Source: a virus. Taken from it: a DNA stretch of 64,000 nt. Position numbers and translations under genes: made by a program. The notes below the pieces were generated by a model. That model was not told the origin of the DNA, did no database searches, and saw only the letters and a list, made by a program, of their open reading frames with translations. This document shows, piece by piece, positions 9,044 to 57,199 of this stretch. The stretch spans positions 64,001 through 128,000 of IMG/VR virus record IMGVR_UViG_3300042402_001868; one strand, given 5' to 3'. Position 1 is the first letter of the stretch. Every line of letters begins with the position of its first letter.

Positions 9044-9046
9044 ACT

Positions 9047-37901: not shown

Positions 37902-37986
37902 TGGTGCCCAGGGTCGGACTCGAACCGACACATATTTCTACGCCAGAACCTAAATCTGGTGCGTCTACCAATTTCGCCACCTGGGC
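37902..37986 (-). tRNA. tRNA-Leu(UAG)
   Basis: Cloverleaf; CCAGA-TTTAGGT-TCTGG; long variable arm; CCA encoded. Confidence 0.95.
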
Positions 37987-38030
37987 TTAACTACTATAAT
38001 AACATACAACGTCTATAGTGTCAATCAATT

Positions 38031-38106
38031 TGGTACCAGGAGACGGAATTGAACCGCCCACGCACAGATTTTCAGTCTGTCGCTCTACCAACTGAGCTAT
38101 CCTGGT
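38031..38106 (-). tRNA. tRNA-Phe(GAA)
   Basis: ACAGA-CTGAAAA-TCTGT; CCA. Confidence 0.95.
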
Positions 38107-38108
38107 AT

Positions 38109-38200
38109 TGGCGGAAGACGGAGGAGTCGAACCCCATCCCTGTTAAGAGAACCTGGTTTTCAAGGCCAGTCGCGGGACCAACCCCACTGCATCATCTTCC
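38109..38200 (-). tRNA. tRNA-Ser(UGA), atypical 8/4 fold
   Basis: Loop CTTGAAA; 8-bp acceptor, 4-bp T stem, long variable arm; GCCA end. Confidence 0.85.
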
Positions 38201-38206
38201 TAATTG

Positions 38207-38280
38207 TGGTCTCGGTAGCAGGAATCGAACCTACGCTCGAACGTCCCAAACGTTCAGTGATACCATTTCACCATACCGAG
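38207..38280 (-). tRNA. tRNA-Pro(UGG)
   Basis: GAACG-TTTGGGA-CGTTC; CCA. Confidence 0.93.
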
Positions 38281-38288
38281 CTTGTGTG

Positions 38289-38363
38289 TGGTACCTGGAC
38301 ACGGTTTCGAACCGCGGACCCTCTCCGTGTAAAGGAGACGCTCTACCCCTGAGCTATCCAGGC
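38289..38363 (-). tRNA. tRNA-Val(UAC)
   Basis: TCTCC-TTTACAC-GGAGA; CCA. Confidence 0.95.
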
Positions 38364-38370
38364 AATAATG

Positions 38371-39540
38371 TTATAAATCAAATCCAAATACTGAACTAAA
38401 ATTTTGTGAGCGAGCCTGATCTAAATCAATAGTGTACTCTTTAAATGTCTGCCAACTTTGTTCTTCTGGTGCGTTAGTTTCTAAAATATGTTTAACACTA
38501 ACCAATTGCGAATGCACAGTTGCTACATCATGTTGATCTAGACCAACTGATTTAAGTATGGGTAATGATTTATCAATAGAGTCTATTGCTTGTTTACGAG
38601 CAACGCCGCTGAGAACCGACGGATGTAGCATGCCTTCGACCACAATCATGTCTAAACTGGTCTGATACTTTTTTCTGTAATCACATACAAATGCAATCAC
38701 CTTGTTGACGTCCAGTATGTTATACGCACTGAGGGCTATATTTGTGTTAATGCCGATCCGATTGTTATCAAGTCTCATACGACCGTAAAATTCTAAATTT
38801 TCTAACATGCGCGGCCAGTTGGTGCCATCTCGAGTGTACTCGGCCACTGCATCCACCCCATCTATGCTGAGGGTGAGTTGTACATATTTAAATTGCGAAA
38901 AGCACTCGACTATTCTTGGATTTATAGTGCTGACATTTGTAGTGACTTGTAATGTAATATCCTTGCCATGCCCTTGTTCGACAATAGCGTTGGTAATTTT
39001 CAACATGCCCGGGATAATCATTGGTTCGCCACCGGTGAAGTTGATCCATTTGAGATCAGGAATTAGTTCTACAATGTCATCAATGAATTCTTCGTCATTA
39101 GACCTGTGTCCAAGATCTGAATCAATGTGCCATTTTTTAAGTGCAGGATTGTCATGTACTTCTCGATCAATCAAACTACTCCAATTGGGCTTGCAAATCC
39201 TGCATCGAAAATTGCACAAATTACTCAGTCTGACTTCGATTGCCTGTGGACGACTTGGTGTATCGATATCTCGAGAAAACTCAATTCCGTTCAGTTCATG
39301 AGAACGAAGAAAAATTTGCCTAAGGCTTTTTCCACCTTGTTCTTCGGTAGTTTTACATCGTTGACAACTTTCTGTTAGATTGCCTGATAATAATCCTTGC
39401 TTGACAATTTTCACATGCTCGCTTGCTAGAAATTGTTTAGGACTAGACATCTTAACCGGAGCATGTCCACAGCAAACACTTTGTTCGTCGTAGCAAAAGA
39501 ATCCTCCATGCCACGGAGATGAGCAGTAGAATTCACTCAT
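38371..39540 (-). CDS. Radical SAM protein with N-terminal SPASM-like motif
   Basis: CSSPW..CC..CQRC; CNFRCRIC, GGEP, TTN and SIDG. Confidence 0.9.
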   Translation of the reverse strand: MSEFYCSSPWHGGFFCYDEQSVCCGHAPVKMSSPKQFLASEHVKIVKQGLLSGNLTESCQRCKTTEEQGGKSLRQIFLRSHELNGIEFSRDIDTPSRPQAIEVRLSNLCNFRCRICKPNWSSLIDREVHDNPALKKWHIDSDLGHRSNDEEFIDDIVELIPDLKWINFTGGEPMIIPGMLKITNAIVEQGHGKDITLQVTTNVSTINPRIVECFSQFKYVQLTLSIDGVDAVAEYTRDGTNWPRMLENLEFYGRMRLDNNRIGINTNIALSAYNILDVNKVIAFVCDYRKKYQTSLDMIVVEGMLHPSVLSGVARKQAIDSIDKSLPILKSVGLDQHDVATVHSQLVSVKHILETNAPEEQSWQTFKEYTIDLDQARSQNFSSVFGFDL

Positions 39541-39553
39541 TAGACTGCACCAA

Positions 39554-39627
39554 TGGAGCGGGGTAGGGGAATCGAACCCCTCGCTTTAGCTTGGAAGGCT
39601 AAGGTATTACCACTATACGAACCCCGC
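39554..39627 (-). tRNA. tRNA-Gly(UCC)
   Basis: TTAGC-CTTCCAA-GCTAA; TCCA end. Confidence 0.95.
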
Positions 39628-39628
39628 A

Positions 39629-40387
39629 TTATTCTGATTCCTTGCCAATGTTATCAGCATGATATTTTGGATCAACCTTTTTGGCAATAAAATTTGCAAA
39701 GCTCTTGTGAGCTGACAAAAAATAATGTCCTGACTTGGTATTGTTAAATCCACGATCCACAGCCCAGTTACAAAACTCAGTTTGTCCCAGTGGTCGATAC
39801 ACCGAATCAGGAAAATCATATTCTTGTACTGCACCAAAACTGTCCAGGTTGATAACAGGAATATTTTTTTGTGCTGCCATGGTATTCAATGCCAGTATAT
39901 TTTTTAACTTGTTCATACGACCCCACCAGCGATCAGCATGATGAGTAATCCATTGTTTTTGATATGCAACTATATCGTTATGGTTGTCAACAGGTTCTCC
40001 TGTAGCTTGGCCTTCTAGCATTATTTTGTCTGGAATAACTTTTGAAAAATTGATTTTACCACCAGCAAGGCCAATCCATTCACCTTCTTCGTAGTCCCAG
40101 ATTTCGGTACGTTCGCCACCAGTCCAGCAAGCAATCACAACATCGGGCTTTACTCGTTCTTTGTAAGGATTACAATAAGTTTCAAATATCCTAAATATTG
40201 CATCGTTTGATCCGCCGGGGATGGCATGATTCATTGGATGGTATCCTAGTAATTGGGCCAGTTGAACTGGATAACTCATAAAGTATCCGTAATGTTCTTT
40301 GCCATAATTTAGTAAATCCACATCTGGCTCTGTATTCATTTCTGAACCAGCGGCGTGACTGCATCCAAGTATAAGTGCTTTTTTCAT
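39629..40387 (-). CDS. SGNH/GDSL-like protein
   Basis: GCSH, GGSN, WT..R and C-terminal GH..AH. Confidence 0.65.
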   Translation of the reverse strand: MKKALILGCSHAAGSEMNTEPDVDLLNYGKEHYGYFMSYPVQLAQLLGYHPMNHAIPGGSNDAIFRIFETYCNPYKERVKPDVVIACWTGGERTEIWDYEEGEWIGLAGGKINFSKVIPDKIMLEGQATGEPVDNHNDIVAYQKQWITHHADRWWGRMNKLKNILALNTMAAQKNIPVINLDSFGAVQEYDFPDSVYRPLGQTEFCNWAVDRGFNNTKSGHYFLSAHKSFANFIAKKVDPKYHADNIGKESE

Positions 40388-40426
40388 AGAAATATTTATA
40401 GACTAATATTATACATTAGTAAAAAC

Positions 40427-40503
40427 TGGCCGGTCCTGAGAGATTCGAACTCCCAACTTCCAGTTTCGAAGACTGGCACTCTATCCAATTGAGTTAAAGA
40501 CCG
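40427..40503 (-). tRNA. tRNA-Arg(UCG)
   Basis: CCAGT-CTTCGAA-ACTGG; CCA. Confidence 0.95.
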
Positions 40504-40508
40504 ATATG

Positions 40509-40585
40509 TGGCAGGAGATATAGGATTCGAACCTATGCATGTCGGAATCAAAATCCGATGCCTTGACCAACTTGGCGAATCTCCA
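40509..40585 (-). tRNA. tRNA-Gln(UUG)
   Basis: TCGGA-TTTTGAT-TCCGA; GCCA. Confidence 0.95.
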
Positions 40586-40596
40586 ACAAAACTATC

Positions 40597-40671
40597 TGGT
40601 GGATGAGAGTAGAGTCGAACTACCACCGGACTCCGTATGAAGGAGGCGCACTACCATTATGCTACTCATCC
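40597..40671 (-). tRNA. tRNA-Met(CAU), probably elongator
   Basis: Loop TTCATAC; paired G1:C72; CCA. Confidence 0.85.
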
Positions 40672-40689
40672 TGGAATTTTCTAACAAGG

Positions 40690-41412
40690 CTATTGTGTTA
40701 TTGTAGAATTTTTTAACAAATATATTTTATTTTTATATATTTTATTTTTTACCTTTTGCCATTGGGAATCGTTGTCTAAGTTAACTGGATTGTGACGGTG
40801 GTCAATTTGCCGGTCGTCGACACAGTCAGTGTTAGTCAGTACATTAATATTTTTAAATTCACCAAGTGCTTCGTATCCTAACGGACGTTCTTTAACACAG
40901 ACACTCCATGCCGACCCTAATACGTAAACATTTTTTATGTGAGTATTTTGTGACAGATAATATGTTAATTCCCAGCCCCACTCTATGGCAATTTGAAATT
41001 TGTCATGGTTACTGTAATTTAAAATCAACGGATCGATTGTACGATGGACAAAAATTACACTACCATTAATGATAAAACCTAAGGGTTCACTTTGCTTGAC
41101 TTGTAAGAATAGCCGGTGTACCTGAACTAAATCTCTGATTATTCTGGTTGAATTGTTCTTAATAAAATCATTGTAATTTTTATACCATATATTAGATGCT
41201 GATATTTTTTCTGAGTTACAATCGTATGCGGCTAAGACAACTGTTTTAATATTTTGATTGTTGTCTAAAAATGATATTATTCGTTTATATAATTGGTCAA
41301 TTGTAGATTTACAATCTTCGGGTGACCAAGGATCTATTATTATAGCTAGACTAGGCTGCTCTAGGATCTTGCCACTAATTTCAGTTTTAACTTTATGAAT
41401 TGTATTATACAT
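40690..41412 (-). CDS. Hypothetical protein, possible cysteine-hydrolase (isochorismatase-like) fold
   Basis: AIIIDPW..VYVLGSAWSVCV; start moved downstream of tRNA-His. Confidence 0.55.
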   Translation of the reverse strand: MYNTIHKVKTEISGKILEQPSLAIIIDPWSPEDCKSTIDQLYKRIISFLDNNQNIKTVVLAAYDCNSEKISASNIWYKNYNDFIKNNSTRIIRDLVQVHRLFLQVKQSEPLGFIINGSVIFVHRTIDPLILNYSNHDKFQIAIEWGWELTYYLSQNTHIKNVYVLGSAWSVCVKERPLGYEALGEFKNINVLTNTDCVDDRQIDHRHNPVNLDNDSQWQKVKNKIYKNKIYLLKNSTITQ

Positions 41413-41449
41413 GATAAAATTACTTATCTGAGTTTGAGACTTAAAACCA

Positions 41450-41526
41450 TGGGGTGCATGATGGGATTCGAACCCACGTATATCGGAATCACAATCCGAG
41501 GTCTTAACCACTTGACGACAAGCACC
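41450..41526 (-). tRNA. tRNA-His(GUG)
   Basis: TCGGA-TTGTGAT-TCCGA; encoded G-1 and C73. Confidence 0.95.
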
Positions 41527-41560
41527 ATATAGAAACACACTGTGTCAATGTGTTTTTATA

Positions 41561-41636
41561 TGGTAGGACGTATTGGATTCGAACCAATGACCAATAGATT
41601 AAAAGTCTACTGCTCTACCAACTGAGCTAACGTCCC
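41561..41636 (-). tRNA. tRNA-Lys(UUU)
   Basis: GTAGA-CTTTTAA-TCTAT; CCA. Confidence 0.95.
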
Positions 41637-41688
41637 ACAAATCTTCCCACTCTTATCACTGTCCATTTGGACTCTCCTTTTAAAAACT

Positions 41689-41765
41689 TGGTAGCTTCAC
41701 TGTGACTCGAACACAGGACCCCCGCGTTATCAACACGGTGCTCTAACCAACTGAGCTATGAAGCT
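41689..41765 (-). tRNA. tRNA-Ile(GAU)
   Basis: CCGTG-TTGATAA-CGCGG; CCA. Confidence 0.95.
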
Positions 41766-41769
41766 GAAA

Positions 41770-41845
41770 TGGTGCCCCCACCATGATTCGAACACGGGAC
41801 CTACTGATTACAAATCAGTTGCTCTACCAGCTGAGCTATAAGGGC
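41770..41845 (-). tRNA. tRNA-Thr(UGU)
   Basis: ACTGA-TTTGTAA-TCAGT; CCA. Confidence 0.95.
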
Positions 41846-41850
41846 TTGTT

Positions 41851-41926
41851 TGGCTCCCCAACGTGGGCTCGAACCACGGACCAACAGATTAACAGTCTGC
41901 TACTCTACCGACTGAGCTATTGGGGA
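41851..41926 (-). tRNA. tRNA-Asn(GUU)
   Basis: GCAGA-CTGTTAA-TCTGT; GCCA. Confidence 0.95.
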
Positions 41927-41937
41927 ATTGATTGATA

Positions 41938-42026
41938 TGGCCGAGAGCCTGGGAGTCGAACCCAGTGACCGTTATACACAGTCTACAGATTAGCAATCTG
42001 CTGCATTACCGTCCTGCCCGCTCTCG
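41938..42026 (-). tRNA. tRNA-Ser(GCU)
   Basis: GCAGA-TTGCTAA-TCTGT; long variable arm; GCCA. Confidence 0.93.
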
Positions 42027-42033
42027 ACATGCT

Positions 42034-42062
42034 ATTATATAGCAGACACATCTCTGTGTCAA
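42034..42062 (-). promoter_or_regulatory. sigma70 consensus promoter for the Ser-Asn-Thr-Ile-Lys-His tRNA block
   Basis: TTGACA-N17-TATAAT, 7 nt upstream of tRNA-Ser(GCU). Confidence 0.85.
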
Positions 42063-42071
42063 CTTAATTCA

Positions 42072-42614
42072 TTACACCAATGGGATGTTTAACTCTTTTA
42101 GTTTGTTAAGATAGTGTACTTGACCTTGACTGACAGTTGTACGCCAGTCATTTAATGAATCACTATTTGCACCATCACTTACAAACTTATAACACAAAAA
42201 CTCTATGTTATGTTTCTTACATACCTTAGCAATGGCATATGCTTCCATATCTACTACATCAGCAGGTATCAATAGATTACTATCAGTAACAAAGTTATCA
42301 CCTGTGCTACACGTTAATCCATTACCTGTGTCAATGATGATTTCATCTTCAAATGGTGTTTGACCTGGTAGACTACCTAACTCACAGCACATCATATCAC
42401 GTTGTACAAACTTTGACACTTGGTGAAATCCTGACTTAACAGTAACTCCACCTGCAGTACCAAAGTTTATAACACGTTTGGGATTGTACTTTGCAATACA
42501 TTCTGCCGCTGTCATTGCGGCATTGACCTTGCCTACGCCAGTGTAAAACACCTTCATACTATAACTCATGTCAGGTGCTTCATCTTTAAGTGCAATTAAA
42601 ATTAGATCGTTCAT
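42072..42614 (-). CDS. MTA/SAH nucleosidase-like (PNP_UDP_1 family)
   Basis: TGVGKVNAA, INFGTAGG, TGDNF, VDMEAYA and KFVSD. Confidence 0.88.
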   Translation of the reverse strand: MNDLILIALKDEAPDMSYSMKVFYTGVGKVNAAMTAAECIAKYNPKRVINFGTAGGVTVKSGFHQVSKFVQRDMMCCELGSLPGQTPFEDEIIIDTGNGLTCSTGDNFVTDSNLLIPADVVDMEAYAIAKVCKKHNIEFLCYKFVSDGANSDSLNDWRTTVSQGQVHYLNKLKELNIPLV

Positions 42615-42637
42615 TCAGTTGTTTCCGTAACATTATT

Positions 42638-42712
42638 TGGTGGACCGTCCCGGGATCGAACCGGGGATTGAAGCTTGCAAAGCTACTGTGTTCCCATCTA
42701 TACCAACAGCCC
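42638..42712 (-). tRNA. tRNA-Ala(UGC)
   Basis: Loop TTTGCAA; G3:U70 identity pair; ACCA. Confidence 0.93.
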
Positions 42713-42717
42713 ATGAC

Positions 42718-42791
42718 TGGCGTACCCACTAGGACTTGAACCTAGACTGACGGTTTTGGAGACCGCGATGCTGCCATTACACTATGGATAC
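42718..42791 (-). tRNA. tRNA-Trp(CCA)
   Basis: GCGGT-CTCCAAA-ACCGT; GCCA. Confidence 0.95.
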
Positions 42792-42974
42792 TCAACACAC
42801 TCTTTAGAATGTGTGTATCAAAGCACTCTAAAATACTTAGGCTGCCTGTTCTTAAAGAATGCTTTAATACGCTGTAATTTTTCATCTCACACAAGAGACT
42901 CTATCCTACAGGCCGCCCGTTTGTTTATTTTTTAAAGTGCTTTAACAGGACCTCGTTTCCTTGAGCACTAAATG

Positions 42975-43003
42975 AAAAACCCTGGAGTGTTTAGTTCCAG
43001 GGT
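42975..43003 (-). terminator. Intrinsic terminator (candidate attenuator) upstream of tRNA-Trp
   Basis: CCCTGGA-ACTAAACAC-TCCAGGG followed by TTTTT. Confidence 0.75.
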
Positions 43004-43028
43004 CCTTTGGGTAGAATACAATTGTACT

Positions 43029-43142
43029 TTACACAGACCCTGAGTCTCCTGGAATGCTATTCACGCGACCGTTCGCATGTGACCAGGCTGATACCTGGGT
43101 AAACATGGATTTTGTTTGCAGTGAATAGTTATGTTTTTTCAT
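43029..43142 (-). CDS. Candidate attenuator leader peptide MKKHNYSLQTKSMFTQVSAWSHANGRVNSIPGDSGSV (37 aa)
   Basis: Lies between a consensus promoter and the terminator; single Trp codon at 43085-43083. Confidence 0.55.
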   Translation of the reverse strand: MKKHNYSLQTKSMFTQVSAWSHANGRVNSIPGDSGSV

Positions 43143-43152
43143 ATTAGTCTCT

Positions 43153-43181
43153 ATTATAGTTTATTTATGATTGTGTGTCAA
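43153..43181 (-). promoter_or_regulatory. sigma70 consensus promoter
   Basis: TTGACA-N17-TATAAT, 10 nt upstream of the leader ATG. Confidence 0.85.
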
Positions 43182-43197
43182 CCACAAATGGTAAAAT

Positions 43198-43272
43198 TGG
43201 TTGCGGGGGAAGGACTCGAACCTCCGTCTTTCGGGTTATGAGCCCGATAGTCTACCACTGACGTACCCCGCG
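43198..43272 (-). tRNA. Initiator tRNA-fMet(CAU)
   Basis: C1xA72 mismatch; GGG/CCC anticodon stem; loop CTCATAA. Confidence 0.95.
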
Positions 43273-43282
43273 GTAATACTTA

Positions 43283-43468
43283 TTTGATAACAATACTGCT
43301 GTGTGTTTAAAGGTTCCTGCTGTATTTCTACACCAGCATCCTTCCAACAGCATGTATGACTGTGACTAGCAGTCTGCCGCAACTTTCGTCCGCTCAGCGG
43401 CCATTGGATTTATAGTTCCCCAGCAGTTGGGCTCTCAGTCAAAGAATTTTTGACACATTGTTATCAAA
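43283..43468 (-). ncRNA. Unknown structured RNA candidate B (~186 nt)
   Basis: 12-bp perfect terminal stem enclosing about five hairpins. Confidence 0.5.
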
Positions 43469-44654
43469 CAGCACTAGGTTTGAACACAGCGTCGTAGTCA
43501 GTGCCACGCATGCTGTCAAGCAGTTTAACATATTGTCGGTAATCATCATAGAGCTTTTGGTCAAACACAGTGGTTTTTCCTAGCCCTGTAATTATATTGT
43601 ATAACTCTTCTCCCCATAGATTATATGGATATATCTGTCCAAGACGAACCGACTCCGGCCTCCGCAACCAATCTACAGTTTCTATCCAGTCTACAAGACG
43701 TTTTAAGTCTTGAGGAGGTGCTGATTCCATGGTCAAACAAGGTGTACCAGACACCGTGGTTATTCTTAAATCTACTTCACGACTTTTAGCATAATCTACC
43801 AACGCCGGTAAACTGTACACACTTGCGTGTTGCAAGGTGTGATTGATGTTTCTCACTGCCCCTGGTAATGCCTCTTGAAGGAGAATCATATTTGCAGAAA
43901 TTTCCTCCCAGCGGCTAGGGTATCTTAGATAATCATTCATAGCCCCCACACCTTCGAGGCTCACGCTGATCCATACATTTGTAAATAATTTTAACTTGTC
44001 CACGAGAACCGGCGGTACACGAGTGAGATTGGTATTAAATTGCAATCTCACATCGGTGTTATTACTGGCAATCAAAATATCTAATATTTTCCAAGTGCTT
44101 GGCAGTGGAAAGGGTTCGCCGCCGCTGATGTCAATACTCACAGCATCCTTGAGTTTTTCAGTTAAAAATTCAATGTATGCAGGATTTTCCCACCACTTGT
44201 CTGGTTGTGGGTGCTGGTGTATCATATTGATGCGATCAAATGCCTCAGGGTTTTGGCCACGTTCCTGATGCCATGCACTGCTGGCATAAGTGCCGCACAT
44301 GATGCATCTTAAATTGCAGTGATTACCCAGGCGTATTTCAAAGTTGTAGATGGGATTATCTACACTCGGAGTAGTGTGAGTTTCTGGATGCAATTCGTTG
44401 GCTCTTTGTCTCAACGAAGTATATCCAAGATCTTCTTCTCGGAAACATTTTACGCATCCAACATGGCGAATTCCTTGATCAAAATCTTTAAGAATTGCAG
44501 TGCGTACATTGTCATTGTACCCTTGATATTGATCCCATCGGTATTCAAGAGACTGGTCACCTTCGGGGTACCATTGACAGCAAGGTGTTAAAACACCTTG
44601 CCATGTTATTCCCAATCCATGATTAACCATGGAGCATGTTATTTTTTCAGCCAT
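43464..44654 (-). CDS. Radical SAM protein with N-terminal SPASM-like motif
   Basis: C..G..TPCC..CVKC; CNLRCIMC, GGEP, NTN and SLEG. Confidence 0.9.
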   Translation of the reverse strand: MAEKITCSMVNHGLGITWQGVLTPCCQWYPEGDQSLEYRWDQYQGYNDNVRTAILKDFDQGIRHVGCVKCFREEDLGYTSLRQRANELHPETHTTPSVDNPIYNFEIRLGNHCNLRCIMCGTYASSAWHQERGQNPEAFDRINMIHQHPQPDKWWENPAYIEFLTEKLKDAVSIDISGGEPFPLPSTWKILDILIASNNTDVRLQFNTNLTRVPPVLVDKLKLFTNVWISVSLEGVGAMNDYLRYPSRWEEISANMILLQEALPGAVRNINHTLQHASVYSLPALVDYAKSREVDLRITTVSGTPCLTMESAPPQDLKRLVDWIETVDWLRRPESVRLGQIYPYNLWGEELYNIITGLGKTTVFDQKLYDDYRQYVKLLDSMRGTDYDAVFKPSAV

Positions 44655-44659
44655 AGGTA

Positions 44660-45862
44660 TTACTTATTTAGAAAAGCCTGGTCAAATGTTATTTTTCGAA
44701 CGGAGTCTATTGATTGAGTAAACTCAAAAAACTTAGATCGGGTGTTTTCATTGAACGCATACTGATCTGTAAGAACTGCTTTTATATAATCTATTGCAGA
44801 ATTCAGATGTGTGATATAGATTGGGGGATCTTGTCCTTTCACAATCTTGGTCAATATAGCATTATCAGCAACGAATGTTTCAATCTGTTGTAATAACTCA
44901 TTGACCTGTGCAGGCGTGAGAGTGTTTATTTCAAGGTAATCGTGCCATGTTACTGTTTGCACTCGTAGAATATACGCATGGTCAACACAATATTGCAGTA
45001 CTGGAATCATTGTGTAATAACTGTAATGTTGTAAAATGTACCCAATATTAAAAAAACTCATATTGGGTAGAGTGTTTAACTTTTGAATATTTGTATTGAT
45101 GTTTCCCCACTTACTGCCATATCTCACATAGTCATTATGGTCTCCAATTCCTTCGACACTGACCATAACATCTATTTGTTTAAATTTTGATAACAGTTCG
45201 TAAACATTATCTTTGAGAAGAGTTGCGTTGGTCACAATGTTAAGATACACCGCCGGAGACAATTGCTCTAAAAAAGTAATTGCTTCTGGGGTAAACAACG
45301 GCTCTCCGCCAATTAATCTTACGTATCTTAGATTTGAAATCAAGGAAGGAGTTAGGTTTTTAAAATCTTGTGATTCGTACCAAAGAAACTTACTATCAAC
45401 AGTTGGGTATTTAAAATTATGTAAAATTGAAAAATTTTGTTTAATTTCAGTATTCCAACTGGAACTACTGTATGGTCCGCACATGTTGCAACGAAGATTG
45501 CAAGTGTTTCCAAACGCAATAGACAGGTGTTCAAGTTGATCAACTACGGCTGTATCAAATTGATCAAGATTGCCTCCAAAATGTTTGTTATATAACTGCC
45601 TTTCGCTAAACGTGTTTTTAGTAGCAGTCTCTTCAACTTCCCAACAGCGATGGCATCCCGAATGTTTAACCCCGGCTAGTAATTCTTGTCTGACAGAGTC
45701 TAATTTAGAAATCTTCCATGTTTTAAAATTTTTAATATGATGAGATTGTTTGTCTGGTGCCGAGACAGCACTTTCATCGTAGGCACAACATGGTGTAAGT
45801 TGCCCAGCATTTCCAATGCTCATGCCAACCCAGGGCATTATGCAAAATGTATCTTTATTCAT
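44660..45862 (-). CDS. Radical SAM protein with N-terminal SPASM-like motif
   Basis: CIMPW..G..TPCC..CHRC; CNLRCNMC, GGEP; start moved out of tRNA-Cys. Confidence 0.9.
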   Translation of the reverse strand: MNKDTFCIMPWVGMSIGNAGQLTPCCAYDESAVSAPDKQSHHIKNFKTWKISKLDSVRQELLAGVKHSGCHRCWEVEETATKNTFSERQLYNKHFGGNLDQFDTAVVDQLEHLSIAFGNTCNLRCNMCGPYSSSSWNTEIKQNFSILHNFKYPTVDSKFLWYESQDFKNLTPSLISNLRYVRLIGGEPLFTPEAITFLEQLSPAVYLNIVTNATLLKDNVYELLSKFKQIDVMVSVEGIGDHNDYVRYGSKWGNINTNIQKLNTLPNMSFFNIGYILQHYSYYTMIPVLQYCVDHAYILRVQTVTWHDYLEINTLTPAQVNELLQQIETFVADNAILTKIVKGQDPPIYITHLNSAIDYIKAVLTDQYAFNENTRSKFFEFTQSIDSVRKITFDQAFLNK

Positions 45863-45878
45863 ACTGATATTTAACCTT

Positions 45879-45956
45879 TGGAACACAGGGTGAGATTTGA
45901 ACTCACGATTTTACGGATTTGCAATCCGTTGCATTTGACCACTCTGCCACCTGTGC
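45879..45956 (-). tRNA. tRNA-Cys(GCA)
   Basis: ACGGA-TTGCAAA-TCCGT; U73. Confidence 0.95.
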
Positions 45957-45960
45957 ATAT

Positions 45961-46116
45961 TTTTATAGTCAAGCACCGAGAGATGCCGATTTGTCAACAA
46001 TGTAGCTAGCACTGACAAGCGAATGGCAGTTATGTCAGGACCTGTTCCTCGCACAGTTAGGCCCGAATAGTGACAGCGTCCCGTCACGATACCTTTATCG
46101 ATGCTTGACTATAAAA
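45961..46116 (-). ncRNA. Unknown structured RNA candidate C (156 nt)
   Basis: 19-bp terminal stem with one G-U pair. Confidence 0.5.
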
Positions 46117-46117
46117 A

Positions 46118-46200
46118 CATATTGAAACACACTAACTACCTTGGCATGTACTAAGGTTCAATGAACCGCTACGACCCTATCTTTAATGTGCTTCAATATG
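46118..46200 (-). ncRNA. Unknown structured RNA candidate D (83 nt)
   Basis: 17-bp terminal stem with G-U pairs. Confidence 0.4.
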
Positions 46201-46397
46201 CTCTGCATCCCCCGGCGGTAATTATAGTACAGGAAGATATGACGCTATCATACCCCCTATAAGTACCTTCCACCCGCTTCCCGACAGGGACCGTTCTCGC
46301 ATTGCTAGCGGCCTTTGGGTTTAAAGACTACCACCCGTAGTTGTCACACTACTTCTCATCCTGCGGGTCACAGTATCCGGAGACACCCGGAACGTTC
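46201..46397 (-). ncRNA. Unknown structured RNA candidate E (~197 nt)
   Basis: GC-rich, multiple hairpins and a long-range ACCCGC/GCGGGT match; starts right after tRNA-Tyr CCA. Confidence 0.5.
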
Positions 46398-46482
46398 TGG
46401 TGGAGATGATAGGGATCGAACCTATCGTGACCGAAGTCGGAGGAGTTACAGTCCCCTGCCACACCATTGCGGCGGCATCTCC
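46398..46482 (-). tRNA. tRNA-Tyr(GUA)
   Basis: Loop CTGTAAC; variable arm; ACCA. Confidence 0.92.
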
Positions 46483-46487
46483 ATGTA

Positions 46488-46562
46488 TGGTACTCGATAG
46501 CGGAGTCGAACCGCTCTTGCCTGGATGAAAACCAGATGTCCTAACCGATAGACGAATCGAGC
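46488..46562 (-). tRNA. tRNA-Glu(UUC)
   Basis: TCTGG-TTTTCAT-CCAGG; CCA. Confidence 0.95.
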
Positions 46563-46570
46563 AAATAAGG

Positions 46571-46635
46571 GAGAGCCACGGTTGCAGGACCTAGTGCTTC
46601 GTTACCAAAGGAAGTATCCAGGCGATGTGGCTCTC
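46571..46635 (-). ncRNA. Unknown small structured RNA candidate F (65 nt)
   Basis: GAGAGCCAC/GTGGCTCTC stem with an inner CCTGG/CTAGG stem. Confidence 0.4.
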
Positions 46636-46641
46636 AAAACT

Positions 46642-46716
46642 TGGCGGTCTGTGGGAGAATCGAACTCCCGTAAGTGGATAGACAATCCACAGTAATAACC
46701 TCTATACGAACAGACC
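46642..46716 (-). tRNA. tRNA-Asp(GUC)
   Basis: GTGGA-TTGTCTA-TCCAC; GCCA; unusual U37. Confidence 0.92.
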
Positions 46717-46724
46717 AAAATCTA

Positions 46725-46939
46725 CTATATTAAAAAATACTAAAGGAACCATTGTGCATCTATGTCTACCTATACAACCGTCTTGTATAGGCCTGCACGG
46801 TCATTACTGCCTACATGCTCCGCCGCTTTTCTGGACATTTCTGCCCGGTTTCATAGACCTAGATTGAGCGTGGGCGGCCCCACTGTCCTCGCCTTAGATC
46901 CCTAACGGTGTAGGTAACCTTTAATACATTTTAATATAG
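46725..46939 (-). ncRNA. Unknown structured RNA candidate G (215 nt)
   Basis: ~20-bp terminal stem; GGGCA-GAAA-TGTCC and CCTATACAA/TTGTATAGG hairpins. Confidence 0.5.
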
Positions 46940-46973
46940 CAACCCTTGCGGGCTACTACAAGAAAAACTTAAC

Positions 46974-47006
46974 TTTTTAAAGAACATCTAGTTAATTTCT
47001 AACTAG
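46974..47006 (-). promoter_or_regulatory. boxB-like hairpin plus boxA antitermination signal
   Basis: CTAGTTA-GAAAT-TAACTAG followed by TGTTCTTTAAAAA. Confidence 0.6.
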
Positions 47007-47011
47007 TCTCT

Positions 47012-47040
47012 AGTATAGCACAATGTCAATATCTAGTCAA
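47012..47040 (-). promoter_or_regulatory. sigma70 promoter (proximal) of the tRNA array
   Basis: TTGACT-N17-TATACT with extended TG. Confidence 0.75.
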
Positions 47041-47109
47041 CTTGTTTTTGCAAGTCCCTTCACTTTAGAAGGATTCTGTTAAGAACACCTTGTTTCTTAA
47101 CTTGTTTCT

Positions 47110-47138
47110 ATTGTAGCAAATTGCGAATATTGCGTCAA
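47110..47138 (-). promoter_or_regulatory. sigma70 promoter (distal) of the tRNA array
   Basis: TTGACG-N17-TACAAT with extended TG. Confidence 0.75.
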
Positions 47139-47146
47139 CCTCCAAT

Positions 47147-47172
47147 AAAAAACCCGCTTAGTGCGGGTTTTT
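47147..47172. terminator. Bidirectional intrinsic terminator
   Basis: AAAAAACCCGC-TTAGT-GCGGGTTTTT. Confidence 0.85.
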
Positions 47173-47198
47173 ATAAATGTAATACTTTTGTTTACATT

Positions 47199-48098
47199 TT
47201 ATGCAACAAACGGAGTGTACTCAATTCCTGTTGTTGCTAACCCTACTAATCCAATTGTGGTTTCAAAAGCTGCCAACTCACTTGCGGCTACTAAAACATC
47301 TGCTTGGCTCAAATTGCTACTAGTCATCCAAGCTGTGTAATCGGTAACCTGGGTCAATGTAGCATCTGTACCAAATACGTTTTTGTAAACATGCTTGATA
47401 AATGTTTCATTACTGACACCACCAGCATCTGTTTTGTAAGTGTCTGTGGCCAATAATGCTGTTGCTAGTTCTTTGTTGGTCCATCCTGAATCAGCAAGGT
47501 GTATACCAATGCCTTTGTATGCGTTGGTTACGTCAGCTGTGCCAAGTGCGGCTGCCAACAATGCGTATACATCGCCGGCACGGCCTGCGGCATCATAAGC
47601 AACGGCCTTGTCAGTGAACACCACACGCTCATGGTCAGCAAGATTGAATTCCATGTTAGAAACTAGAGTACTTGCCAAGGTAACCTTAGCGGCAGTTTTA
47701 GTTGTGGTGAACTCTGTGCTTGCACCGCCCATGGTGTAAGTGTCAACACCTGCGGTACCAGTGACATCTACAACAACGTCAACGGTGCCATCACCTGCAC
47801 GACCTGTACCCACTACGCCGAATGTGGCAACTTTACCTAGTGTGCCAACAGTGGCCACTGTAACGATCAAGTTGTTGGCTACCGTGCCGCCTAATGCTGT
47901 TCCAGCAAGAGTGATTGTATCACCTGCTACATAGCCGCGACCTGCACTTGCGGCAAGGCTGTCTAATACAACGGAATATACGCCGTTGGTTTTTGTAACA
48001 TCAAATGCGGCCTCAACTCCTGCACCACCTGTTAATCCAGTGATGTTTTGATAGGTAGCGTTTACTGCTTTGTCTTTGATTGTAATTGTTGTTGTCAT
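47199..48098 (-). CDS. Thr/Ala/Gly-rich surface-protein-like ORF with DUF4214-like C-terminus
   Basis: GYVAGDTITLAGTALGG beta motif; ERVVFTDKAVAYD..VYALL.AA..SNETFIKHVYKNVFG..LVAASE. Confidence 0.7.
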   Translation of the reverse strand: MTTTITIKDKAVNATYQNITGLTGGAGVEAAFDVTKTNGVYSVVLDSLAASAGRGYVAGDTITLAGTALGGTVANNLIVTVATVGTLGKVATFGVVGTGRAGDGTVDVVVDVTGTAGVDTYTMGGASTEFTTTKTAAKVTLASTLVSNMEFNLADHERVVFTDKAVAYDAAGRAGDVYALLAAALGTADVTNAYKGIGIHLADSGWTNKELATALLATDTYKTDAGGVSNETFIKHVYKNVFGTDATLTQVTDYTAWMTSSNLSQADVLVAASELAAFETTIGLVGLATTGIEYTPFVA

Positions 48099-48127
48099 TA
48101 TTTTTCCTTGTAAAATGAATATCAACT

Positions 48128-48156
48128 AGTATATAGCGTTTATACTAATAAGTCAA
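48128..48156 (-). promoter_or_regulatory. sigma70-type promoter
   Basis: TTGACT-N17-TATACT. Confidence 0.7.
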
Positions 48157-48157
48157 A

Positions 48158-48186
48158 GAAAAAGGGCACAAAAATGCCCTTTTTTT
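48158..48186. terminator. Intrinsic terminator after tmRNA
   Basis: AAAAAGGGCA-CAAAAA-TGCCCTTTTTTT. Confidence 0.85.
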
Positions 48187-48506
48187 GGTGGTTTCTGTTA
48201 CGAGGTATTTCCTACCCTAGGCTGAGTTCAGGCAGCCAAAGCGAACTGTTCGTCGTTTGCATTTACGTGTTTTGCTTCTCCGACCGGGAGACCCCTGTCC
48301 TAACGGCTTCTACATTGCCGGACTGTCCATTTCCGTACTCTTGACCCAATCGATATCTATGTCAGGCCCATCAAAAACACACTAGAACTAAGATTTTCGC
48401 AGTCAAGTTTTAGAGTACTCGTACTACGCCAATGTGCTTATGGTGGACCTGCCGGGAACTGCCCCCGGGTCTTGAATCCTTTTCTGTCTACTTCATACAG
48501 TCTTAA
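48186..48506 (-). ncRNA. ssrA: Two-piece (circularly permuted) tmRNA, tag ANDEQFALAA
   Basis: T-arm CCGGG-GGCAGTT-CCCGG and AGGTCC-ACCA (ends 48441) precede the GGGCCTGAC coding piece (starts 48369); tag ORF 48260-48228. Outer ends approximate. Confidence 0.92.
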
Positions 48507-48580
48507 CTTGTATTTAAACATATCTTCGAATTATTGTCAACCTCTAATCACAGCATAATTACATACAGCAAGGACAACAT

Positions 48581-49288
48581 ATGATTTATTTTGATGGTGA
48601 TAGTCACACATACGGGGAAGAATTAGAAAACCCTGCGCAGGAAAGTTTTCCAAAAATCTTGTCAGAAAAACTAGGACATGAATTTGTAAACTTAGCCGAA
48701 TCTGGATGTGCCAATGATGAAATCATGAGAAGGGTACATCGTTACCTGGCACAGTGCAAAGAAAAAAATCAATACCCAGACATGATAATCATTGGTTGGA
48801 CTGAAGTTGACCGCGAAACATGGTTCCTTAACGGTGTGGGAAAATCTGTTGAAACATACAAATTAACCGCAACAGATGCACATAAACTGAACCCTGAGAG
48901 GCTTGCTAAATTTAGAAAAAATGTCAAATACAACGGTATGTATATTGCTGCCATGACACACTATTGGTACAATCAAGTTTTTAATTTACATTGTGAACTT
49001 GAACTGTTAAAAATTCCGCACTTGTTTTTTCATGGCTGTCCAAATTGGTTAAAAAAGTGGAATGACATCCGTAGTTGGAATATTGTAAAAATGGACAATA
49101 TCACCACATATCCGTGGAATAATACTTTTATAAATCAGACAGATCCTGATTTTAGCATGTTTCAATGGACCACTGCTCGTGGACATCCACACACCAAATA
49201 TGATCACGTTGGACCTCTAGCACATGTTGAATGGGCCGAGTTGTTGTACAACCACATACAACAGCATGCTCTGCTAGATCAATTGTGA
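48581..49288 (+). CDS. SGNH/GDSL-like protein
   Basis: GDSHTYG, NLAESGCAND, GWT..R and DHVG..AH. Confidence 0.7.
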   Translation: MIYFDGDSHTYGEELENPAQESFPKILSEKLGHEFVNLAESGCANDEIMRRVHRYLAQCKEKNQYPDMIIIGWTEVDRETWFLNGVGKSVETYKLTATDAHKLNPERLAKFRKNVKYNGMYIAAMTHYWYNQVFNLHCELELLKIPHLFFHGCPNWLKKWNDIRSWNIVKMDNITTYPWNNTFINQTDPDFSMFQWTTARGHPHTKYDHVGPLAHVEWAELLYNHIQQHALLDQL

Positions 49289-49809
49289 CTGTCATTGTCC
49301 CATTCTTTTGGAATCCAGCCTAGTCGAAATAGGTCTGCTCGTATTTCGTCAGTAACTGTGCCCTCTGGCACATGTCCTAGGTTCACCCATTGTTCATCGG
49401 GTTCACCTTGTATTCCTGAACAATACCAATCAATATAGTCACCTTGTTCGCGCATGTCTGCCACAATGCCTCCTGCATGGCGCCAACTGGCACTCCACCG
49501 CTGATCCCGGATCAATGGCCATACTTTGTTCTTTACAAACTGCATGTTGCACATGGCCGCATACAAGTTTTGAGCATAAGAGGCATTGCTTTTAACTTTG
49601 TCACAGATCCACTTGGTGCTACGCAGGTCGTATTCCATGTTGTCTTTTTGCCATTCAGGATCTACTATATTAGCTTCAGCTTGTTCTTTAGCTGTTTTCC
49701 ACATGTTAATATAAATTTCTGGAACTTCTTTGCCATCTTGTTTGGCTCGCTCTTTTGCACTCTCAAGTTGGAAGGTATGGCGCTCGGGACTGCTGTTTAC
49801 TTTGGTCAT
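49279..49809 (-). CDS. Hypothetical phage protein
   Basis: 176-aa ORF. Confidence 0.75.
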   Translation of the reverse strand: MTKVNSSPERHTFQLESAKERAKQDGKEVPEIYINMWKTAKEQAEANIVDPEWQKDNMEYDLRSTKWICDKVKSNASYAQNLYAAMCNMQFVKNKVWPLIRDQRWSASWRHAGGIVADMREQGDYIDWYCSGIQGEPDEQWVNLGHVPEGTVTDEIRADLFRLGWIPKEWDNDSHN

Positions 49810-49819
49810 GATATAAAAA

Positions 49820-49906
49820 TGGTACGAGTGACCGGAATTGAACCGGTACGCCTTTTAAAGCGAGAGATTTTAAGTCTCTTGTGTCTACCTATTTCACCAC
49901 ACTCGC
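49820..49906 (-). tRNA. tRNA-Leu(UAA)
   Basis: AGAGA-CTTAAAA-TCTCT; variable arm; ACCA. Confidence 0.95.
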
Positions 49907-49913
49907 TTGTGCA

Positions 49914-50075
49914 TTAACCGCCCCTGCCAGTGACCTTTTTAACAGGTTTGCCCACAGGCTGTGGCGCTGTTGCTTTCTTAACTGACTTGGAACCTTTAGC
50001 AGGTTTTGCATCAGGATGTTGTGCGGCATGCTTTTTTTCCAATGCCGCTTTTACTGCTGTGATATATGAAGCCAT
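49914..50075 (-). CDS. Small Lys/Ala/Pro-rich basic protein (53 aa)
   Basis: Read directly: MASYITAVKAALEKKHAAQHPDAKPAKGSKSVKKATAPQPVGKPVKKVTGRGG; AGGAG RBS. Confidence 0.7.
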   Translation of the reverse strand: MASYITAVKAALEKKHAAQHPDAKPAKGSKSVKKATAPQPVGKPVKKVTGRGG

Positions 50076-50109
50076 ACTGTTCTCCTAGTGTCTGTTATTT
50101 AACAGGGCA

Positions 50110-50184
50110 TGGTCCGGCCACTAGGAATCGAACCTAGATTGACGGCTTAGAAGGCCGCTGTATTATCCATTATACTATGGCCAG
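50110..50184 (-). tRNA. tRNA-Arg(UCU)
   Basis: GCGGC-CTTCTAA-GCCGT; CCA. Confidence 0.95.
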
Positions 50185-50189
50185 ACAAT

Positions 50190-50549
50190 TTAATCCCAAT
50201 GCATCCGGTTGTTCATCTGATAGAAAAAATCTTTTTCTAACTCATACATATCTGATGGACTCAATCTAAAGTGTTGACTATTACCCAGTCTTGATACTGA
50301 AAATCTAACATAGCTAGCAGGTTCGCAGTTGGGTCGCGGTGCATGATGTTTGTTAATTACCAACCAGTTGTGTCCGTTAACTTCGGCATTGAATCCTGTT
50401 TCTTTGTTCCAGTTGGCCAGCATGTCGGCCATCTGATCTGTGGTCATGTGATACCCTTGAGCATAGGTGTCGCTAACTCTTATAGAGAGGTCAACCCGCT
50501 TTTGCTCTTTGAACACATATAGTTTTAAAGTTTTGGTAAAGTTTAACAT
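50190..50549 (-). CDS. Hypothetical protein
   Basis: 119-aa ORF between two tRNAs. Confidence 0.65.
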   Translation of the reverse strand: MLNFTKTLKLYVFKEQKRVDLSIRVSDTYAQGYHMTTDQMADMLANWNKETGFNAEVNGHNWLVINKHHAPRPNCEPASYVRFSVSRLGNSQHFRLSPSDMYELEKDFFYQMNNRMHWD

Positions 50550-50560
50550 TTAGAATTAAT

Positions 50561-50637
50561 TGGTGCGCCCACAAGGACTTGAACCTTGGACCAAAGGATT
50601 ATGAGTCCTCTGCTCTGACCAACTGAGCTATAGGCGC
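50561..50637 (-). tRNA. tRNA(CAU), probably Ile2 (lysidine-type)
   Basis: GA-CTCATAA-TC anticodon arm as in bacterial Ile2; third CAU tRNA in the window. Confidence 0.85.
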
Positions 50638-50645
50638 ATTGTTTT

Positions 50646-50674
50646 ATTGTACAAGGAAAACTATTTATAGTCAA
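50646..50674 (-). promoter_or_regulatory. sigma70 promoter with embedded TATAAATA
   Basis: TTGACT-N17-TACAAT. Confidence 0.7.
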
Positions 50675-56801: not shown

Positions 56802-57199
56802 GATACTTCACTCCTGCCATTGCCAATATCTTTACTCTGTACCCAGATACCCGAGTTCTTGATTGCTTGTTCTTGTTCCCATGTTTCCATCACAACATGT
56901 CTGCATACATTCTGGAACCATTGATCCACAATGTCAGCATCAACCTTGCCTTGATAGCCTGCCTTGATTAGTCTAGCAACAAAGATTTCGTTCCAGTCAA
57001 GTTCGAATGCACCTTGATGCAAATTGTCAAGATCTACGTCCATTCCTAACACAGCCACATAAGGCTCACCTGCTTCGGTAGCAATTTGCTTGGCAGTTTT
57101 TTCAGGAACCTTGGCCTTGGGCACAGACACCTTGGGTGCTACCTCTATAGGCTTCTCTACCTTCTTGGGTTTTAAAAATCTATCAAATATTCCCATCAT
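56798..57199 (-). CDS. Hypothetical phage protein
   Basis: ATEAGEPYV..FELDWN..WF; start at the ATGA overlap. Confidence 0.75.
   Translation of the reverse strand: MMGIFDRFLKPKKVEKPIEVAPKVSVPKAKVPEKTAKQIATEAGEPYVAVLGMDVDLDNLHQGAFELDWNEIFVARLIKAGYQGKVDADIVDQWFQNVCRHVVMETWEQEQAIKNSGIWVQSKDIGNGRSEVS

Follow-up and report, generated by a model that had tools for sequence, protein, structure and literature searches.

The 64,000-nt window analysed here (positions 64,001 to 128,000 of IMG/VR record IMGVR_UViG_3300042402_001868, a linear record of 155,922 bp, below G000) carries an island of transfer RNA (tRNA) genes which holds one tRNA for each decoding box, together with a transfer-messenger RNA (tmRNA). 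Window and record belong to the same phage, an uncultured T4-like freshwater (lake) phage of ~340 kb. All 25 tRNA genes of the window lie on the minus strand at 37902-50637, within 12.7 kb, and the same 25-species core is kept by related phages even as its genes are swapped, slot by slot, for distant alleles. With a probability of roughly 0.6, we consider this a general tRNA supply island, selected for completeness and served by host-type promoters, in a large phage with A/U-rich codon usage. The RNA genes of the island, from its opening to its close, are the following.

50561..50637, minus strand: tRNA-Ile2(CAU), presumed lysidine-modified, opens the island (ARAGORN, loop and stem features, Escherichia coli matches)
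50110..50184, minus strand: tRNA-Arg(UCU) (ARAGORN, Rfam)
49820..49906, minus strand: tRNA-Leu(UAA) (ARAGORN, Rfam)
48184..48562, minus strand: tmRNA, permuted (two-piece type), tag ANDEQFALAA (RF04321 108.1 bits, RF01849 74.6 bits, ARAGORN tmRNAp*)
46642..46716, minus strand: tRNA-Asp(GUC) (ARAGORN, Rfam)
46488..46562, minus strand: tRNA-Glu(UUC) (ARAGORN, Rfam)
46398..46482, minus strand: tRNA-Tyr(GUA), class II, with a long variable arm (ARAGORN; RF00005 33.3 bits)
45879..45956, minus strand: tRNA-Cys(GCA) (ARAGORN, Rfam)
43198..43272, minus strand: initiator tRNA-fMet(CAU) (C1xA72 mismatch; G29-31/C39-41 pairs)
42718..42791, minus strand: tRNA-Trp(CCA) (ARAGORN, Rfam)
42638..42712, minus strand: tRNA-Ala(UGC) (ARAGORN, Rfam)
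41938..42026, minus strand: tRNA-Ser(GCU) (ARAGORN; RF00005 43 bits)
41851..41926, minus strand: tRNA-Asn(GUU) (ARAGORN, Rfam)
41770..41845, minus strand: tRNA-Thr(UGU) (ARAGORN, Rfam)
41689..41765, minus strand: tRNA-Ile(GAU) (ARAGORN, Rfam)
41561..41636, minus strand: tRNA-Lys(UUU), loop CUUUUAA (ARAGORN, Rfam)
41450..41526, minus strand: tRNA-His(GUG), encoded G-1 (base 41526) and C73 (ARAGORN)
40597..40671, minus strand: presumed elongator tRNA-Met(CAU) (UUCAUAC loop, U4-A69)
40509..40585, minus strand: tRNA-Gln(UUG) (ARAGORN, Rfam)
40427..40503, minus strand: tRNA-Arg(UCG), present instead of ACG (ARAGORN, Rfam)
39554..39627, minus strand: tRNA-Gly(UCC), C32 in the anticodon loop (ARAGORN)
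38289..38363, minus strand: tRNA-Val(UAC) (ARAGORN, Rfam)
38207..38280, minus strand: tRNA-Pro(UGG) (ARAGORN, Rfam)
38109..38200, minus strand: (8/4) tRNA-Ser(UGA) (ARAGORN -ps, selenocysteine tRNA model 36.9 bits, covariation in 19 variants)
38031..38106, minus strand: tRNA-Phe(GAA), a gene missing in the relative G007 (ARAGORN)
37902..37986, minus strand: tRNA-Leu(UAG), closes the island (ARAGORN, Rfam)

Default ARAGORN called 24 of the 25 tRNAs; tRNA-Ser(UGA) emerged only at a relaxed threshold (-ps, in a scan of the whole record) and is backed by covariation. The Rfam tRNA model RF00005, run on all 155,922 bp, likewise returned 24 tRNAs, again missing Ser(UGA), and none outside the island. 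The anticodons are those listed in an initial annotation of this DNA. Eight tRNAs with U in the wobble position (U34) serve the four-codon boxes (UAG, UGA, UGG, UAC, UCC, UCG, UGU, and UGC), and for these eight the 156-kb record holds no partner with G34, C34, or A34. Arg(UCG) is a rare U34 decoder of the CGN box. Eight G34 tRNAs (GAA, GUG, GUU, GUC, GUA, GCA, GCU, and GAU) serve the boxes of pyrimidine-ending (NNY) codons and five U34 tRNAs (UUG, UUU, UUC, UAA, and UCU) those of purine-ending (NNR) codons, which leaves Trp(CCA) and three CAU tRNAs (initiator, elongator Met, and Ile2). The CCA end is encoded in all 25, in Ser(UGA) under an 8-bp acceptor fold. That 25 species are the minimum under superwobble, as the initial annotation stated, agrees with the deduction made for plastids (Alkatib et al. 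2012, PMC3499367).

Relatives were collected through searches with the PNP-like protein gene of the island and with the pattern of the (8/4) tRNA-Ser, and the tRNA sets of 18 records, G000 included, were compared with BLAST checks. The core consists of 23 anticodons, with CAU counted three times, and thus of 450 slots across the 18 records. At most ~6 of the 450 are empty, so that the core is about 98-99% filled. The total number of tRNAs per record runs from 25 to 45, no full island holds fewer than 25, and the bare core occurs in one record, G000. The sets of seven of the records are as follows.

G000: 25 tRNAs, core only, the sole such record
G007: 25 tRNAs, core without Phe(GAA), plus Thr(GGU)
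G014: 26 tRNAs, Arg(ACG) replaces Arg(UCG); plus Gly(GCC)
G009: 26 tRNAs, Ile(UAU) replaces the third CAU tRNA (not classed); plus Gly(GCC)
G001: 35 tRNAs, core and many extras
G006: 35 tRNAs, core and many extras
G005: 45 tRNAs, two CAU tRNAs and not three; plus many extras

The commonest extras are Gly-GCC (15 records), Arg-ACG (13), and Thr-GGU (11), followed by Val-GAC and Lys-CUU (8 each) and Ile-UAU and Leu-CAA (7 each). The relatives are therefore supersets of the core and not random subsets, and the core is a conserved floor of which exact minimality is one state among many. The initial annotation had described the set as exactly minimal and free of redundancy. This is right for the 156-kb record, in which no anticodon is duplicated (the three CAU tRNAs fall into separate classes), and wrong as a conserved state. 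Seven of the relatives are 95-100% complete, at 124, 190, 222, 332, 347, 352, and 360 kb, and in these all RF00005 hits fall in a single island except for one CAU tRNA in G002 and, in G001, the tRNA-like domain of a tmRNA. The closest relative, G007 (332 kb, 95% complete), is collinear with the window, and at ~10 tRNA slots it shares 95-100% identity with G000. With G007 collinear and the tRNAs of the relatives confined to the island, the missing part of the G000 genome is unlikely to hide further tRNAs; the scan for redundant genes elsewhere gave none in the 156-kb record. A megablast search of the island against GenBank phages matched single tRNAs only (84-100% identity) and revealed no close cultured relative.

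The two closest sets differ by precise single-tRNA indels. G007 has no Phe gene (its positions 9894-10114 were compared with 37902-38200 of the window), and an additional Thr(GGU) gene separates its Thr(UGU) from its Ile(GAU), while the neighbouring tRNAs are 100% identical in the two phages. Exact minimality is thus a snapshot.

The strongest evidence that the repertoire itself is selected comes from the way in which individual slots turn over. Outside two short segments, the DNA that flanks the tRNAs shows 77-86% identity between G000 and G007, but the identity of the tRNA slots is bimodal. Ten slots are 95-100% identical: Tyr, Thr, Ile, Ser(UGA), and Leu(UAG) at 100%, and Lys, His, Arg(UCG), Gly, and Arg(UCU) at 95-99%. 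Identity falls to 61-73% in six others (Asp, Pro, Val, Glu, Ala, and Gln). Furthermore, the Asp, Glu, Val, Pro, and Asn genes of G000 are 97-100% identical to genes of G002. As judged from these alignments, genes are swapped slot by slot for distant alleles with the same anticodon. The alleles differ even in the class of their anticodon loops, with UUUAGGU and CUUAGAA found in Leu-UAG and UUUGGGA and CUUGGAA in Pro, and the order of the genes is scrambled between relatives. Replacement of a tRNA body with retention of its anticodon argues for selection on the repertoire.

Near-identical tRNAs are also seen in much smaller genomes. G009 (222 kb), G010 (190 kb), and G014 (124 kb), all rated complete by CheckV, carry an (8/4) tRNA-Ser that is 96-98% identical to that of G000, and G009 and G010 are also near G000 in Arg-UCG (90-96%) and Cys (90%). 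With such tRNAs shared by phages of 124-222 kb and ~350 kb, genes or island segments appear to move between lake phage lineages.

In the reading that we favour, the short-spacer tRNA blocks would stand behind strong sigma-70-type promoters, from which the host RNA polymerase would most likely transcribe them early. The transcripts would most likely be trimmed to the encoded CCA by host RNase P and 3' exonucleases, and host enzymes would modify and charge the products. The phage would in this manner top up or replace the entire host tRNA pool, and translation of its A/U-rich genes would be freed from whatever supply remains in the host. Selection would act on the anticodon repertoire, that is on completeness, and not on the number 25; G000 would be the variant without optional isoacceptors. 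Four putative promoters, identified as consensus matches only, all lie upstream of tRNA blocks.

50646..50674, minus strand: sigma-70-like match 10/12, ends 9 nt before tRNA-Ile2
43153..43181, minus strand: sigma-70 consensus match 12/12, TTGACA-17-TATAAT, upstream of the Trp-Ala block
42034..42062, minus strand: sigma-70 consensus match 12/12, TTGACA-17-TATAAT, ends 8 nt before tRNA-Ser(GCU)
37996..38024, minus strand: sigma-70-like match 11/12, extended TG, ends 10 nt before tRNA-Leu(UAG)

The match at 43153..43181 is farther off than the 8-10 nt of the others.

Several results weigh against this reading. The G000 record is 45% complete according to CheckV. In G007, tRNA-Phe is nowhere in a genome that is 95% complete, which makes completeness favoured and not obligatory. 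The capacity of the set also depends on what is assumed of U34, as can be seen when it is set against the codon usage of the phage alone (129 open reading frames called in the G000 record, 90% coding).

Crick wobble: 45/61 sense codons read, 21.6% of usage unread
5-carboxymethoxyuridine (cmo5U)-type reading: 53/61 sense codons read, 8.7% of usage unread
Superwobble: 61/61 sense codons read, 0% unread

The four-box NNY codons make up 21.6% of the codon usage, and full self-sufficiency of the set requires that U34 read them through superwobble, which is unproven. Most relatives add Gly-GCC, Arg-ACG, or Thr-GGU, and this suggests that U34 tRNAs are poor NNY readers there. Metatranscriptomes add little: two runs gave short contigs over tRNA-rich bins, mostly <99% identical and with DNA carry-over possible, and they are evidence neither for nor against transcription. 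Finally, the enzymes that the tRNAs would need seem to come from elsewhere. A CCA-adding enzyme was not found in G000 and four 95-100% complete relatives, and T4 Rnl1 was not found in the same five genomes, in a search that had no positive control and is weak. A TilS-type PP-loop protein was found in one of the five only, as a 198-aa PP-loop ATPase of G001 (PF01171, 122 bits; G001:C1:202238-202723), which belongs to a family that includes TilS. As searches of G000 gave no TilS, CCA-adding enzyme, SmpB, or Rnl1, the tRNAs would depend on host enzymes. The self-sufficient replacement pool proposed in the initial annotation is formally complete, at 61 of 61 codons under superwobble, and the term fits the tRNA molecules only.

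Codon usage offers an explanation of its own. If the GC content of the phage lies below that of its host, tRNAs for A/U-ending codons and for AT-rich amino acids could be carried for compensation alone, and completeness would be a by-product. The GC content at third codon positions (GC3) is 38.5% in G000, NNA codons are preferred in the Ser, Thr, Ala, Pro, and Leu boxes, AUA accounts for 24% of Ile codons and AGA for 87% of AGR codons, and U34 is found in 13 of the 13 tRNAs where a choice exists. The tRNAs of XacN1, a Xanthomonas jumbo phage, also match codons that are commoner in the phage than in its host (PMC5852040). Yet 11 of the 25 tRNAs (eight with G34, Trp, Met, and fMet) are the sole decoder of their own box in any bacterium; as they have no alternative isoacceptor, carrying them alters supply and not codon choice, and they offer nothing to tune. 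GGY makes up 66% of Gly codons and CGY 72% of CGN codons, yet UCC and UCG are carried in place of GCC and ACG. The full core is moreover kept in nearly every relative, even through gene replacement. We regard compensation as an unlikely sole cause. The initial annotation had set codon-bias tuning aside altogether, which holds for the 11 sole decoders, beyond the reach of tuning alone, but not for the U34 tRNAs, with which the low GC3 and the A-ending, AUA, and AGA codons agree.

A reading that goes further than ours takes the phage group to be selected for keeping an organelle-like decoding set that is independent of the host. Its U34 tRNAs, among them Arg-UCG and Gly-UCC with C32, would evade or tolerate wobble modification by the host and would then superwobble, the 25 genes would read 61 codons after loss of the host pool, and the rapid replacement of tRNA bodies under a constant anticodon would reflect an arms race against host defences that cleave tRNA. 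Superwobble by Gly(UCC) needs C32, which is not sufficient for it (PMC10853795). C32 is present in 3/3 records that lack Gly-GCC, and U32 is found only where GCC is present (4/14). As a marker of superwobble C32 was rejected, since this association is not significant (about 0.4 by chance) and C32 is not sufficient in any case. We hold this stronger version to be doubtful.

The diversity of tRNA bodies could instead result from defence. The phage would then carry nuclease-insensitive copies of every tRNA that PrrC, RloC, PARIS, retron effectors, or similar systems might destroy, an idea published for T5-like phages (PMC10264068). Complete coverage takes in the known targets Lys(UUU), Tyr, and fMet, and same-anticodon alleles that are 61-73% identical and differ in their loops are what diversifying pressure would give. 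However, recombination among co-occurring phages explains this diversity equally well, the loop of Lys(UUU) is the ordinary CUUUUAA, and RNA repair genes were not found (with the Rnl1 search lacking a positive control), which makes counter-defence quite improbable as the reason for the island. Lastly, a largely neutral mobile tRNA array, with the exact 25 a chance state of little selective meaning, would fit the presence and absence of single genes between G000 and G007 (Phe, Thr-GGU), the mosaic alleles, the scrambled order, the sharing of one (8/4) Ser gene by records of 124, 190, 222, and 332-360 kb (CheckV 95-100% complete), and an exact core in 1 of 18 records, but it is very unlikely, as random subsets would be expected where the core is instead about 98-99% filled with no full island below 25, and as several tRNAs are 100% identical in G000 and G007 amid ~80% identical DNA, which points to purifying selection or recent sweeps.

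Among the tRNAs of the proposed supply island, Ser(UGA) is unusual. It has an 8-bp acceptor stem, a 4-bp T stem, a 5-6-bp D stem, a 5-bp variable arm, G73, and CCA. On the Rfam model of selenocysteine tRNA (tRNA-Sec) it scores 36.9 bits, under the family cut-off of 47, and is aligned with long acceptor and D stems and a T stem of 4 bp, in agreement with an 8/4 fold. The fold which ARAGORN gave at its relaxed setting misplaced the acceptor stem, and single-sequence minimum free energy folding returned no cloverleaf (z = -0.48); the fold was settled by covariation instead. A 25-mer that covers the variable arm and the T arm is present in 73 IMG/VR contigs, and 19 sequence variants of Ser(UGA) were recovered from 70 of these. 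In the acceptor stem, compensatory changes were found at pairs 5-84, 6-83, and 8-81, the last being the eighth pair, which changes from G-C to A-U in several variants; others were found in the D stem (15-28, 16-27) and in the anticodon stem (33-47, 34-46). In the alternative 7/5 fold, pair 49-65 would be U.C or U.U. The covariation of the eighth pair establishes Ser(UGA) as an (8/4) fold and as a real tRNA. With its long variable arm, G73, and a serine anticodon it has the identity features for seryl-tRNA synthetase and is a predicted serine tRNA. At the base of the anticodon stem, a C31.A39 mismatch is invariant in the 19 variants; as the neighbouring pairs covary, the mismatch itself seems to be under selection.

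(8/4) tRNA-Ser of the allo-tRNA group is a described class that includes genes in bacteriophage tRNA clusters (Mukai et al. 2017, PMC5389517). Like these, Ser(UGA) divides the 12 bp of its acceptor branch 8/4 and combines a long variable arm with G73 and a serine anticodon. Its D stem recalls the long one of tRNA-Sec in its 5-6 bp, supported by the changes at 15-28 and 16-27, yet it has a bulged A and a 6-nt loop where the group would show a tetraloop. The invariant C31.A39 is a difference. The alphaproteobacterial phages of that study carry (8/4) tRNA-Ser together with (8/4) tRNA-His, whereas the tRNA-His of G000 is canonical (G-1, C73). The phage group adds a large natural sample of (8/4) tRNA-Ser genes with covariation support. 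ARAGORN also reported the anticodon ACU (Ser, A34) in G002 (about 8980-9070) and G008, and its relaxed threshold brought other odd calls (AAA and "gg"); whether false or real, the latter case would add to the non-canonical tRNAs.

The CAU tRNAs of G000 and its relatives sort into three conserved classes. The tRNA at 43198-43272 (class 1) bears the marks of a bacterial initiator, with a C1xA72 mismatch and three G-C pairs beside the anticodon loop. In that at 50561-50637 (class 2) the loop reads CUCAUAA, with A38, C4-G69, and C5-G68. The E. coli genes that match it best over the full length are annotated by PGAP as tRNA-Ile, and the single one inspected has a CAT anticodon, which identifies it as Ile2. 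The third (40597-40671, class 3) has a UUCAUAC loop and U4-A69, and we take it to be the elongator Met by analogy with bacterial and plastid elongator tRNA-Met; the distinction between Met and Ile2 rests in part on general identity elements. A blastn search with this tRNA against GenBank phages gave 0 matches. Ile(UAU) was called in 7 of the 18 records (G009, G010, G006, G008, G012, G013, and G016). Such a tRNA is rare in bacteria and would make the lysidine synthetase of the host dispensable.

The tmRNA lies inside the interval of the tRNA island and was absent from the initial annotation. Its match to RF04321 (108.1 bits against a cut-off of 47) spans model positions 1-213, RF01849 gives 74.6 bits, and a terminator-like hairpin follows on its 3' side (48184-48159, minus strand). 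Many relatives also have a tmRNA, sometimes outside the island, with the tags ANDSQFALAA, ANDEMFALAA, and ANDELFALAA. SmpB (PF01668) was found neither in G000 nor in the four 95-100% complete relatives, so the tmRNA would rely on SmpB from the host. The exact tag ANDEQFALAA is found in one-piece tmRNAs of Rhodocyclaceae, Limnobacter, and Pasteurellaceae. Together with G-1 and C73 of tRNA-His, the tag suggests a host of beta- or gammaproteobacterial type, although it names no host. The same tag is encoded by a tmRNA with 76% identity to that of the phage (191 nt) on NZ_JBBAKG010000090.1, a 23-kb contig in a metagenome-assembled genome of "Haliscomenobacter sp." with a GC content of 44%; most other bacterial contigs with the tag have 50-71%, and those of Pasteurellaceae 33-41%. 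This is probably a phage contig that was mis-binned into a bacterial genome, or else a hint to the host.

Arrays of tRNAs for all 20 amino acids, the translation gene sets of huge phages, and (8/4) tRNA-Ser in phage clusters are already published. XacN1 has 26 canonical tRNAs that cover all 20 amino acids, which was read as host independence (Yoshikawa et al. 2018, PMC5852040). As a jumbo myovirus with a clustered array for all 20 amino acids, 26 tRNAs in each copy, it resembles G000, but its array lies in 66-kb terminal repeats, is hence duplicated, includes suppressor tRNAs, and is accompanied by tRNA-processing genes (PMC5852040). G000 has instead a single-copy internal island with the superwobble-minimum set and a tmRNA, and tRNA-processing genes were not found in it. 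Huge phages carry up to 67 tRNAs, and also tmRNAs, for which a redirection of host translation was proposed (Al-Shayeb et al. 2020, PMC7162821). G000 resembles them in being large, uncultured, and rich in tRNAs, with a tmRNA. Huge phages often add aminoacyl-tRNA synthetases, SmpB, tRNA-modification enzymes, and tRNA ligases (PMC7162821), whereas TilS-type PP-loop proteins, CCA-adding enzyme, SmpB, and Rnl1 were not found here, save for the PP-loop protein of G001. The likeness to the plastid minimum lies in the 25 species, initiator included, and in a single U34 tRNA for every four-codon box (Alkatib et al. 2012, PMC3499367). Knock-outs were the basis on which that minimum was deduced, and about 30 tRNAs are retained in real plastids. 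In plastids U34 is known to be unmodified where superwobble works; for CGN codons, plastids use ACG and G000 has UCG.

The tRNAs number 8 in T4 and about two dozen in T5, where some species are missing and others duplicated, and neither phage is known to have been described as carrying an exact minimal decoding set. Clusters of this type underlie the model of anticodon-nuclease evasion (van den Berg et al. 2023, PMC10264068). G000 is like them in its short-spacer tRNA cluster, in its lytic myovirus-type genome, and in the role proposed for the tRNAs, the replacement of depleted or cleaved host tRNAs. The present group has the neat and testable property that its conserved core coincides with the minimum expected from theory; in a literature search of incomplete coverage we found no paper that calls a phage tRNA set a superwobble minimum.

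Why phages carry tRNAs is debated, and the main proposals are that they compensate for codon usage, replace host tRNAs that have been degraded, or help the phage to escape defences that cleave tRNA. The present phages offer an unusually clean natural experiment on this question, as they are co-occurring relatives with a floor of 25 species above which genes are swapped and added. The key contrasts are a genome with the core only (G000) and a near-identical relative that lacks a single core member, Phe (G007). They make it testable whether completeness is selected, which four-codon boxes tolerate a lone U34 in a bacterial cytoplasm, and whether defence lies behind the diversity of tRNA bodies.

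Island DNA occurs in many lake-water metagenomes from different studies, and the exact metagenome contigs break at tRNA genes. In some lake contigs 38365 and 39554 are directly joined, an arrangement without the insert that is also seen in G007. Most protein-gene inserts of the island are missing in that relative, where the Gly-Val spacer is 6 nt in length compared with 1190 nt in G000. In G000, three radical-SAM paralogues (38371-39540, 43464-44654, and 44660-45886, minus strand) and a PNP_UDP_1 (nucleosidase/phosphorylase-like) gene (42072-42614, minus strand) stand between the tRNA blocks. We suggest that the nucleosidase could clear 5'-deoxyadenosine for the radical-SAM enzymes of the island. 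A few kb away there are three further genes.

57196-58050, minus strand: QueE-like radical-SAM gene
58780-59565, minus strand: methyltransferase gene, with a weak tRNA-methyltransferase match
62174-62989, minus strand: GTP cyclohydrolase gene

Together these look like a 7-deazaguanine (preQ0/queuosine-type) pathway, for which the usual target in phages is DNA.

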